A stretch of DNA of 64,000 nucleotides, from the NCBI RefSeq assembly GCF_030013205.1, contig NZ_CP122648.1; one strand, given 5' to 3'. Within the stretch, counting starts at the first letter, position 1; each line of letters starts with the position of its first letter. The DNA is from Escherichia coli. GTDB lineage: Bacteria; Pseudomonadota; Gammaproteobacteria; Enterobacterales; Enterobacteriaceae. A program made the position numbers. This document shows, piece by piece, positions 47,601-50,600 of the stretch.

Positions 47601-50600
47601 GGGATTGTCTCCATATTTTGACAAAAGAAATAACAAAGTTTACTGGCGTTACAGGCATCCCATAACAGGCAAAAATCACGGTCTCGGCAGTATTGACCAG
47701 AAACTGGCAGAAACTATTGCAGCAGAAGCGAACAGCCGTCTTGCCAGGCAGCAAATGGAACAAATGCTCAGTCTGCAGGAGAAAATTATTAGAGATACCG
47801 GCGGTTCATCAACTGTTTCCAGTTTTCTGAATAATTACAGAAAAATTCAACAGGAAAGATATGAAAACGGAGAAATCAAACTCAACACGCTGAAACAAAA
47901 AGCGGCCCCTCTCAGAGTATTTGATGAACGTTTTGGCACCAGACCGTTAGATGCCATAACCGTAAAGGATGTGGTATCGGTGCTGGAAGAGTACAAGACC
48001 AGAGGACATAACAGAATGGGACAAATTTTCAGGAAGGTACTGATCGATGTTTTCCGGGAAGCTCAGCAAACAGGCGATGTCCCGCCAGGCTTTAACCCTG
48101 CAGAATCGGCAAAAAAACCACAGGTGCGGATATCAAGACAGCGACTGACTTTTGATGAGTGGGTGATGATTTATAACGCAGCGGAAAAGGATGGTTACTT
48201 TTTACAGCGCGGTATGCTGCTGGCACTGATGACAGGCCAGCGCCTTTCAGATATTTGCAAAATGCAATTTTCGGATATCCGGGATGGTTATCTTCATGTC
48301 GAACAGCAAAAAACAGGAGCCCGGATTGCCATCCCTCTGGCTCTGCGCTGCGATAAATTAAATCTCACTCTGGATGATGTGGTGTCATCCTGTCGCGATT
48401 GCGTTCTTAGCCCGTGGCTATTGCACCACCATCACGCGAAAGGGACAGCTAAGCGCGGCGGGATGGTTAAACCAGCAACGTTAACCGTTGCATTTAAAAA
48501 AGCGCGGGATTCTGTGGATTACAACTGGCGTGCTAATGGCACCCCACCCTCTTTCCATGAGCAGAGATCTTTATCAGAAAGATTGTTCAGAGAACAGGGA
48601 ATTGATACCCAAATTTTGCTGGGTCATTCGAATCAAAAAATGACCGATATTTACAACGACGCACGCGGTAAGGAGTGGAAAAAACTGGTTATTTGATAAC
48701 CAGTTTTGCAGAAGAGTTTTGCAGAGGTTTTGCAGAGAAAATTAGAAGCGGTATCCGGCAGAGAACATAAACCCCCAAGGATCCAGTCGTACCGCGTCTT
48801 TCACGGGGGTTCCATTAAATTTATAGCTGGCGGTGGTATCGATATCCATGTACCACACTGACATGTTAACCAACCAGTCACGGTTAATCAGATAATCAAC
48901 CCCCACCTGCCCGGCAGCTCCCCAGGAATCTTTCAGACTGAGATCGGAAAGCCCCGCCTCTTTGCCATGATCGTTAAATCCATTATCAAAGAAGGTGGTG
49001 TAGTTAATACCTGCCCCAACGTAAGGACGGAATTTGCTGCTGGCATCACCAAAATACCACTGCGCCATCAGTGTTGGCGGCAGATGATGAACGGTTGCAA
49101 TATCGCCGGTCGCCCGGGTGCCGATTTTATGGCGGAACGGCGTCGCTGCCAGCAATTCCACACCAATGTTATCGGTCGCCATATAAGTAAACGTCAGGCC
49201 CAGTTGCGTGTTATTGGTCACGCTGAATCCACCCAGACTTCCTAACGTACCACCAGCACCTTCTGTTGGACGTACGGTTGCAGAACCTGCACGCATAAAA
49301 AATTCGCCTGCTTCATGCGCAAAGGCACTGCCAGAGAGAAGAGTTGTTACTGCCAAAGCCGCCACTGTTAACTTTTTCATATCCGCTCCGTCGTTATGGT
49401 TATAAAAACGTGACGAATATACCTACATTGGAGTAACAAATGATCCTACATAGATCACATTACATATGATAATTCACCATTTATTGATCTGGATTAATTT
49501 ATAAGTTGCATTGAGAATCCTGGTTAATGTGATTTAAATCAATTTTTAAATATTTTCGCTACGCAAATATTAACTCGACCGCCACTTGCCGCGATTTGCC
49601 CACGTCTGAAGGCCAGCAATTACCTCCGCTTTACAAAGATATGCTTTTCCATACAAGACCTGATGCTGCCACCCGAGGCTTAACCAGGGTACAATTGCCC
49701 GCTAATTAACACCTGCATAAAACTCAAGGAGAGTGCATGTCTATCACGGCGCAGTCCGTATACCGTGACACCGGAAATTTCTTCCGTAATCAATTTATGA
49801 CCATTCTGTTGGTATCGTTGCTATGTGCGTTTATCACAGTGGTGTTAGGGCATGTTTTCTCACCCAGTGATGCACAGCTTGCGCAGCTCAATGACGGCGT
49901 GCCCGTTAGCGGCAGTAGTGGGTTGTTCGACCTGGTTCAGAATATGTCACCGGAACAGCAACAAATTTTGCTGCAGGCTTCAGCGGCGTCCACTTTTTCA
50001 GGATTAATCGGTAACGCCATTCTCGCCGGAGGCGTAATATTAATTATCCAGCTGGTGTCTGCGGGTCAGAGAGTCAGTGCGCTGCGAGCTATTGGTGCCA
50101 GTGCGCCGATATTGCCCAAGTTATTTATTCTGATTTTTCTGACTACCCTTTTAGTACAGATTGGCATCATGCTGGTGGTCGTTCCGGGAATTATCATGGC
50201 CATTTTATTGGCCCTGGCACCGGTGATGTTGGTACAGGACAAAATGGGCATTTTTGCCTCGATGCGTAGCAGCATGCGCCTGACCTGGGCGAATATGCGT
50301 CTGGTGGCACCCGCAGTACTGAGCTGGTTGCTGGCAAAGACACTGTTGCTGCTTTTTGCCTCTTCTTTTGCCGCATTAACCCCGGAAATTGGTGCCGTAC
50401 TGGCGAACACCTTGAGCAACCTGATTTCAGCCGTACTGCTCATCTATCTGTTCCGCCTGTATATGTTGATTCGCCAATAACCTTAAGCATTTGATTACGG
50501 AATCGTAAAATGAAGCAGTTTCTTGATTTTTTACCGCTGGTTGTCTTTTTCGCGTTTTACAAGATTTATGACATCTATGCGGCTACTGCGGCGCTGATCG

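Follow-up and report, generated by a model that had tools for sequence, protein, structure and literature searches.

The subject of this study is the attachment site of a degraded Shiga toxin 2e (Stx2e) prophage that is inserted in the ompW gene of Escherichia coli; it lies in a stretch of 64,000 nucleotides of contig NZ_CP122648.1 (assembly GCF_030013205.1), and this whole stretch is referred to as the window. Three closely spaced copies of GTTTTGCAGA are found directly behind the integrase gene int of the prophage, and a fourth copy in the same orientation is situated at the opposite prophage end, in the other arm of the attachment site. From sequence comparison we infer that the triple is bound by the integrase (Int) and constitutes its int-proximal arm-type sites, equivalent to P'1-P'3 of phage lambda, with a probability of about 0.88. 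The fourth copy is best explained, judging by its position, as the equivalent of lambda P1. As arm-type sites the repeats would be an ordinary, previously unannotated part of the attachment site. The features are listed in Table 1.

Reading of the sequence and a pattern search locate the 9-mer TTTTGCAGA at 48704-48712, 48717-48725 and 48728-48736 of the plus strand; with its leading G the unit reads GTTTTGCAGA, and the start-to-start spacing is 13 bp and then 11 bp. The array is called at 48702-48738 by Tandem Repeats Finder. An earlier note on this DNA had described a triple tandem repeat between int and the core of the attachment site (att), and this is borne out. The three copies fill most of the 45-bp gap that separates the convergent stops of int and of a phage-borne 3' end of ompW. 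No other 9-mer occurs three times inside 40 bp in the window, such triples are absent from all 100 first-order Markov simulations of the window, and about 1.1 copies of TTTTGCAGA are expected by chance per 64 kb. A chance origin of the triple is excluded. One additional exact TTTTGCAGA is present at 41505-41513 on the minus strand; it is not counted as part of the attachment site because it lies inside an open reading frame in the middle of the prophage and fits the chance expectation for the window.

The junction of int, repeats and ompW' is present in 1,728 of 5,426 complete E. coli genomes. Among the E. coli haplotypes, which are 84-100% identical, none of the 27 positions of the repeat cores varies, compared with 4 of 11 spacer and flank positions (hypergeometric p ~0.005). 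The first repeat is unvarying in all aligned haplotypes, and its first G doubles as the final base of a hairpin at the int stop; the leading G of the third repeat is replaced by A in some relatives. We also note that E. coli O157:H7 strain ECP17-46 (NZ_CP040572) carries four tandem copies of GTTTTGCAGA at ~290-345 of the extracted locus (L094), which arose by duplication of one 13-bp unit, so that the copy number of the int-side arm is changeable by slippage.

The product of int carries the domain that arm-type sites call for. The arm-DNA-binding domain (Arm-DNA-bind_1, PF09003) covers residues 2-71 with an E value of 7e-22, the catalytic domain PF00589 is matched with an E value of 6e-17, and a match to PF22022 falls slightly under its curated cutoff (23.5 vs 27 bits). 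Int aligns over its full length with the lambda Int structures 1z1b and 5j0n (E 1e-56), and, like lambda Int, combines an arm-binding domain with a catalytic fold, with a 5-residue insertion in the beta-hairpin of the N-domain relative to lambda. The identity amounts to 50.5% with phage 21 Int, the closest characterised relative, and to 36% with lambda Int. The residues that we take to be the lambda catalytic R, K, H, R, H and Y are aligned in Int.

A search for further copies near the other att end had been proposed in the earlier note, and an exact AGTTTTGCAGAA was found there at 26591-26602, 111 bp inward of the far core copy and in the orientation of the triple; the chance expectation for such a match in the int-distal arm is ~4e-4. 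The lack of further copies in the att arms, which the note had named as counting against its reading, is thus not observed. In K-12, whose site is empty, the bacterial sequences of the two sides adjoin each other and lack the motif, and the repeats are therefore phage DNA. A virtual attP was built by joining both prophage ends and was searched against phage genomes. Phage 204576 matches it contiguously across the core, as do tandem or circular IMG/VR loci (L025, L069), and in each of these attP sequences, be it free or tandem, the copies of the motif are placed at -150, -137, -126 and +126/127 from CCACACTG; all four are thus present in the free phage genome. The repeats accordingly occupy both attP arms, distal to the crossover region, with ~270 bp across the core between the triple and the fourth copy, and the core sequence is unrelated to them.

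The int-distal arm is just 71-82% identical among the window, phage 204576, PPompW_132418 and P-EibA, and the fourth copy is kept at +126/127 from the core in the latter three. The best-conserved block of this arm stops exactly at the fourth copy in these four variants, beyond which the sequences are unrelated. A site resembling the consensus of integration host factor (IHF) adjoins the fourth copy; it departs from the consensus at one position in the window and at none in three arm variants, and a perfect IHF consensus stands at the equivalent position in PPompW_132418, P-EibA, phage 21 and e14. The predicted minimal attP would be ~286 bp in length, with 48703-48867 joined to 26481-26601, and would extend from the first repeat through the fourth copy. 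Inverted P2-like or degenerate copies were sought in both arms, and the candidates, all with 3 mismatches and non-conserved, were rejected. The absence of a conserved inverted P2-like copy (at up to 3 mismatches) is the ground on which the layout is described as 3+1 rather than as the five-site arrangement of lambda.

Phage 21 offers the closest parallel. Its record (OL657228) holds a feature 12 bp past int that reads "attP consists of 3 subsites P1P2P3; consensus YYTTCCCCAAAA". In the orientation of int these subsites are three copies of GTTTTGGGGAA with a spacing of 13 and 12 bp. As in the window, the int stop is followed by the triple, then by a 3' end that replaces that of the target gene and is encoded on the opposite strand, and then by the core. 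A fourth co-oriented copy lies ~125 bp past the core, and a perfect IHF consensus is located 18-19 bp from this copy, on its core side. Both motifs have TTTTG as their 5' half, whereas the 3' half is GGGGA in phage 21 and GCAGA in the window. Further differences concern the target gene (icd in phage 21, ompW in the window), the int-side arm (~230 bp compared with ~140 bp), a separate terminator between the repeats and icd' (a pseudogene) that only phage 21 has, and a weak inverted copy, TTAGCCAAAAT, core-side of its IHF site, which the window element lacks. A search of the literature for phage 21/e14 arm-type sites and for the motif strings gave nothing usable, and PMC10111431 makes no statement on arm sites of this type. 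The e14 element of K-12 (intE/xisE, in icd), whose Int belongs to the same subfamily, has three copies of TTTTGATAA adjoining icd' (locus L181, 1444-1476), and a fourth copy (~16283-16294) ~125 bp inside its other end, beside a perfect IHF consensus. Its motif is of the GATAA class, unlike the GCAGA of the window, and intE (4680-5807) is 3.2 kb from the arm sites, since ymfD, ymfE and lit lie in between. The "repeated dodecamers" of phage 21 are reportedly sequences that had been suggested as its arm sites. On sequence grounds the window element belongs to the phage 21/e14 (IntE-type) module, with an Int of this clade, an ompW' replacement and a TTTTGNNNA triple spaced 13 then 11 bp.

A positive control was provided by lambda, HK022, HK97, SF6 and Pocitis76, in which P'3-P'2-P'1 are found after int at the equal position and in the equal orientation. 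The lambda sites were taken from the features "int 1" to "int 4" of RefSeq NC_001416. Lambda P1 is co-oriented with the P' sites and located at the outer end of the other arm beside an IHF site; the fourth copy of the window takes this place next to its IHF-like site. The lambda motif is ATAGTGAC rather than TTTTGCAGA; lambda P'2, however, reads ATTTTGACTG. The spacing is ~10-11 bp in lambda compared with 13 and 11 bp in the window. In contrast to lambda, the core of the window element is inside a gene, a 100-bp replacement 3' end stands between arm sites and core, and no P2-type inverted site is recognisable (at up to 3 mismatches, conserved). The consensus of the lambda arm-type sites P1, P2, P'1, P'2 and P'3 is said to be C/AAGTCACTAT.

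The element is of the same family as the PPompW prophages of Shiga toxin-producing and enteropathogenic E. coli (STEC/EPEC) (Nakamura et al. 2021, PMC8112680), which have a 98% identical Int, the same insertion in ompW and the same triple repeat. PPompW prophages with this Int excise and circularise on treatment with mitomycin C (PMC8112680); arm sites are unmentioned in that paper, in which the word "arm" has 0 occurrences. The copy in the window is a degraded Stx2e variant of porcine strains, unlike the PPompW of STEC/EPEC, and its P arm is ~76% identical to that of PPompW_132418 (94/124 positions). The att duplication is 121 bp in the PPompW prophages, and the identity block of the window is longer (26 bp).

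A scan of genome contigs with an alignment of five Ints yielded 80 loci, which come from many Enterobacterales genera and have Ints of 47-98% identity. They were examined with a motif-blind detector, set to report three 9-mers spaced by 10-14 bp that agree in at least 8 of 9 columns. Downstream sequence was sufficient at 78 loci, of which 52 have a triple; none of 80 upstream and 80 within-gene control regions has one. The triple begins 0-36 bp past the int stop in all loci but one (+64), and in all 52 its first interval is 13 bp and its second 11 or 12 bp; partly decayed triples are present in three further loci. Four motif classes are distinguished, TTTTGCAGA, TTTTGGGGA, TTTTGATAA and ATTTTACTG. 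Most of the surveyed elements target icd irrespective of motif class, and the targets of the GCAGA class comprise ompW, icd, porin genes, an ABC permease and others. The occurrence of one GCAG motif with different target genes is expected if recognition of arm and core are separate modules. Triples are also found in Klebsiella phage Kp4865-4, in phage 640R1 (at potC) and in Pseudomonas phage LESphi3. Nearly all contigs of an IMG/VR scan with Int end at the int stop, and downstream sequence was obtained from 10 loci, all at least 95% identical. Strong support for arm-type Int sites, as the earlier note had read the repeats, comes from comparison: the fourth copy, the arm domain of Int, phage 21, e14 and lambda, and these 52 relatives.

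Several points weigh against the assignment to Int. The subsite annotation of phage 21 is a note of its depositor. No IHF-like site was found between triple and core, in an int-side arm of ~105-140 bp, and no inverted copy in the P arm is conserved among the PPompW variants at up to 3 mismatches; lambda excision needs P2, and hence the excisive complex is not mappable one-to-one onto that of lambda. Class-diagnostic residues are enriched in the N-domain of Int (9 of the top 25 columns fall in its 65 residues), positions 7, 15, 17, 20, 23 and 39 being among them. Identity within classes exceeds identity between classes by 24 points in the N-domain, by 12 points in the core-binding domain and by 9 points in the catalytic domain. 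The motif classes are nevertheless largely whole-protein clades; even by catalytic domain, 61 of 63 proteins have a nearest neighbour from their own class. For this reason the covariation of N-domain and motif is regarded as suggestive, and no specific recognition residues are claimed. The excisionase (Xis), moreover, is co-inherited with Int, and the comparative data alone therefore leave some room for Xis as the binder.

This last point bears on the best of the rival explanations, in which the repeats would be sites for Xis or another accessory DNA-bending protein instead of Int. Lambda Xis binds the closely spaced direct repeats X1, X1.5 and X2, and three direct repeats 11-13 bp apart do look like the site of an Xis filament. 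An Exc-family xis adjoins int, and co-inheritance makes both the family-wide conservation and the covariation of classes fit Xis as well. The sites of lambda Xis, however, are restricted to the int-distal P arm, whereas the triple is on the int-proximal arm with a single copy at the outer edge of the other, which is the layout of lambda P'1-3 plus P1. The motif has TTTTG, orientation and position in common with lambda P'2, and the homologous repeats of phage 21 are labelled as P subsites of attP in the record. We consider sites for Xis improbable.

A role in RNA or transcription, as part of a terminator of int or ompW or as a 3' untranslated region element of the hybrid ompW mRNA, is suggested by the location of the repeats between convergent stops and beside a conserved hairpin; read-through would place them in the 3' untranslated region of both genes. 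The hairpin spans the int stop and stands between a preceding A-run and a following T-run. It has folding z values of -6.1 on the minus and -3.5 on the plus strand, and in relatives it reads CTGGTCAT...ATGACCAG, with a compensatory change of T:A to C:G. This hairpin probably serves int and ompW, which converge on it, as a terminator in both directions. It is, however, an element separate from the repeats and upstream of them on the plus strand, and the direct repeats do not form a terminator stem. A simple terminator and promoter scan of 48400-49000 made no calls, the hairpin included, and an Rfam search gave no family, its single sub-threshold match to a small nucleolar RNA being ascribed to chance. 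The triple follows int also where the neighbour is icd, potC, a porin gene or nothing, and the fourth copy, ~270 bp off across the core, would be needless for an RNA element of ompW or int. Such a role is accordingly very improbable. Neutral replication slippage without function, to which the shift in copy number in ECP17-46 might point, is effectively refuted by the conservation pattern, in which 9-mers are unvarying across haplotypes while spacers differ, a distant fourth copy exists, and the architecture is kept with different motifs in other genera and in Ints down to 45% identity. All three explanations are rendered unlikely by the two-arm layout, the family-wide pattern independent of the neighbouring gene, and the pattern of conservation.

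If the repeats are arm-type Int sites, Int would bind the triple and the fourth copy in the other arm through its N-terminal arm-binding domain (about residues 1-70), and the C-terminal domains of the same protomers would bind weak core-type sites around ATATCCATGTACCACACTG inside ompW. IHF would bend the DNA at the conserved site beside the fourth copy; this bending is proposed to let arm-bound Int bridge to the core, so that the recombinogenic complex assembles.

More tentatively, and at somewhat less than even odds, we propose that the 21/e14/PPompW clade of Int has a fixed 3+1 layout, in which a triple with intervals of 13 and then 11 or 12 bp is paired with one co-oriented site that adjoins an IHF site at about +126, and in which a P2 is not recognisable. 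The TTTTG half would be constant, and the 3' half, in at least four classes (GCAGA, GGGGA, GATAA and ATTTTACTG), would act as an orthogonality code. If this is true, several elements could use one attB, in most cases icd, and neither integrate nor excise each other, and a given arm class would be combinable with many core specificities, the window element being an ompW-targeting member of the GCAGA class. The motif classes also suggest possibly orthogonal arm specificities for integrase engineering. The understanding of how lambda-type integrases work is unchanged; the chief addition is the family-wide "3+1, TTTTGNNNA" rule together with the discrete motif classes. With a TTTTGNNNA triple just past int as a guide, arm sites and the limits of attP can be annotated in many prophages of Enterobacterales. 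The likely attP limits (~286 bp) apply to a prophage family that about one in three complete E. coli genomes possesses and that carries Stx2e in this case and genes for type III effectors in others, and they bear on predicting which of the mostly defective PPompW prophages still excise or get mobilised.

Table 1. Coordinates of the attachment-site elements and associated genes in the window.
Feature	Position	Strand	Remarks
Arm-type repeat 1, GTTTTGCAGA	48703-48712	+	Outermost, nearest int; pattern search, Tandem Repeats Finder
Arm-type repeat 2, GTTTTGCAGA	48716-48725	+	Sequence reading, pattern search, haplotype alignment
Arm-type repeat 3, GTTTTGCAGA	48727-48736	+	Nearest the core; pattern search, haplotype alignment
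Fourth arm-type copy, GTTTTGCAGA	26592-26601	+	Other att arm, co-oriented; putative lambda P1 equivalent and outer attP boundary
IHF-like site, AATCAGGCAGTTA	26561-26573	-	1 mismatch to WATCAANNNNTTR; 18 bp core-side of the fourth copy
att core identity block, ATATCCATGTACCACACTGACATGTT, int-side junction	48842-48867		26-bp exact direct repeat, inside ompW
att core identity block, ATATCCATGTACCACACTGACATGTT, other prophage junction	26455-26480		26-bp exact direct repeat
Inverted repeat GTGGTA-N12-TACCAC	48833-48856		Spans the core start
Phage-borne ompW replacement 3' end	48742-48841	-	Stop 48742-48744; ompW left intact in the lysogen
Displaced original ompW 3' end	26355-26454	-	Far prophage junction; contiguous with the rest of ompW in K-12
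Hairpin CTGGTTAT-TTG-ATAACCAG	48685-48703		Spans the int stop
int, lambda-type heterobivalent tyrosine integrase, 376 aa	47566-48696	+	Stop TGA 48694-48696; PF09003, PF00589
xis, Exc-family excisionase	47340-47588	+	PF07825; adjoins int
stxB (Stx2e)	30571-30834	-	
stxA (Stx2e)	30847-31806	-	

The duplicated block at the two prophage ends, the core included, is 126 bp, and over this block the phage-borne copy has 74% DNA identity to the displaced original. The ompW reading frame is preserved, and the C-terminus ...SAGYRF is encoded by both 3' ends. Only ATATCCATGTACCACACTG is the part of the core common to all relatives. Where the core starts, the inverted repeat GTGGTA-N12-TACCAC presumably represents candidate core-type half-sites of Int around the crossover. 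In one IMG/VR sequence (L026, IMGVR_UViG_643886067_000001, ~3800-3910) an int-side arm of the PPompW type and ompW' are joined after ...GTACCAGACCG to sequence other than ompW; this junction may be an insertion at a secondary site or an attB-like copy in another prophage.

Three T-rich blocks, CTTTTTTATAC, CGTTTTTCCGTG and GTGTTTTTAAC, ~10-13 bp apart, are observed at about 26536-26565, on the stretch of the int-distal arm that separates the core from the IHF-like site. A possible role in binding Xis, or in bending of the DNA, was considered; the blocks are just partly conserved among the arm variants, and no assignment was made.

The gene order of the window is acnA, the trp operon, yciE-F-G, prophage, ompW, tonB and opp. 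The prophage, a degraded lambdoid element of 22 kb (26481-48841) between yciE and ompW, contains stx2e, dicA/B/C, an IS481-family insertion, xis and int. Over the query region the window is 100% identical to porcine Stx2e strains such as K_EC180, and the 100% matches include porcine oedema-disease and enterotoxigenic E. coli strains. Decay is evident from the terminase, which is a pseudogene, and from the loss of most structural genes. Three tRNA genes are situated directly upstream of the Stx2e genes on the minus strand. A SIR2-family gene (38590-39549) adjoins the IS481-family transposase insertion (37188-38261) and could be phage-defence cargo.

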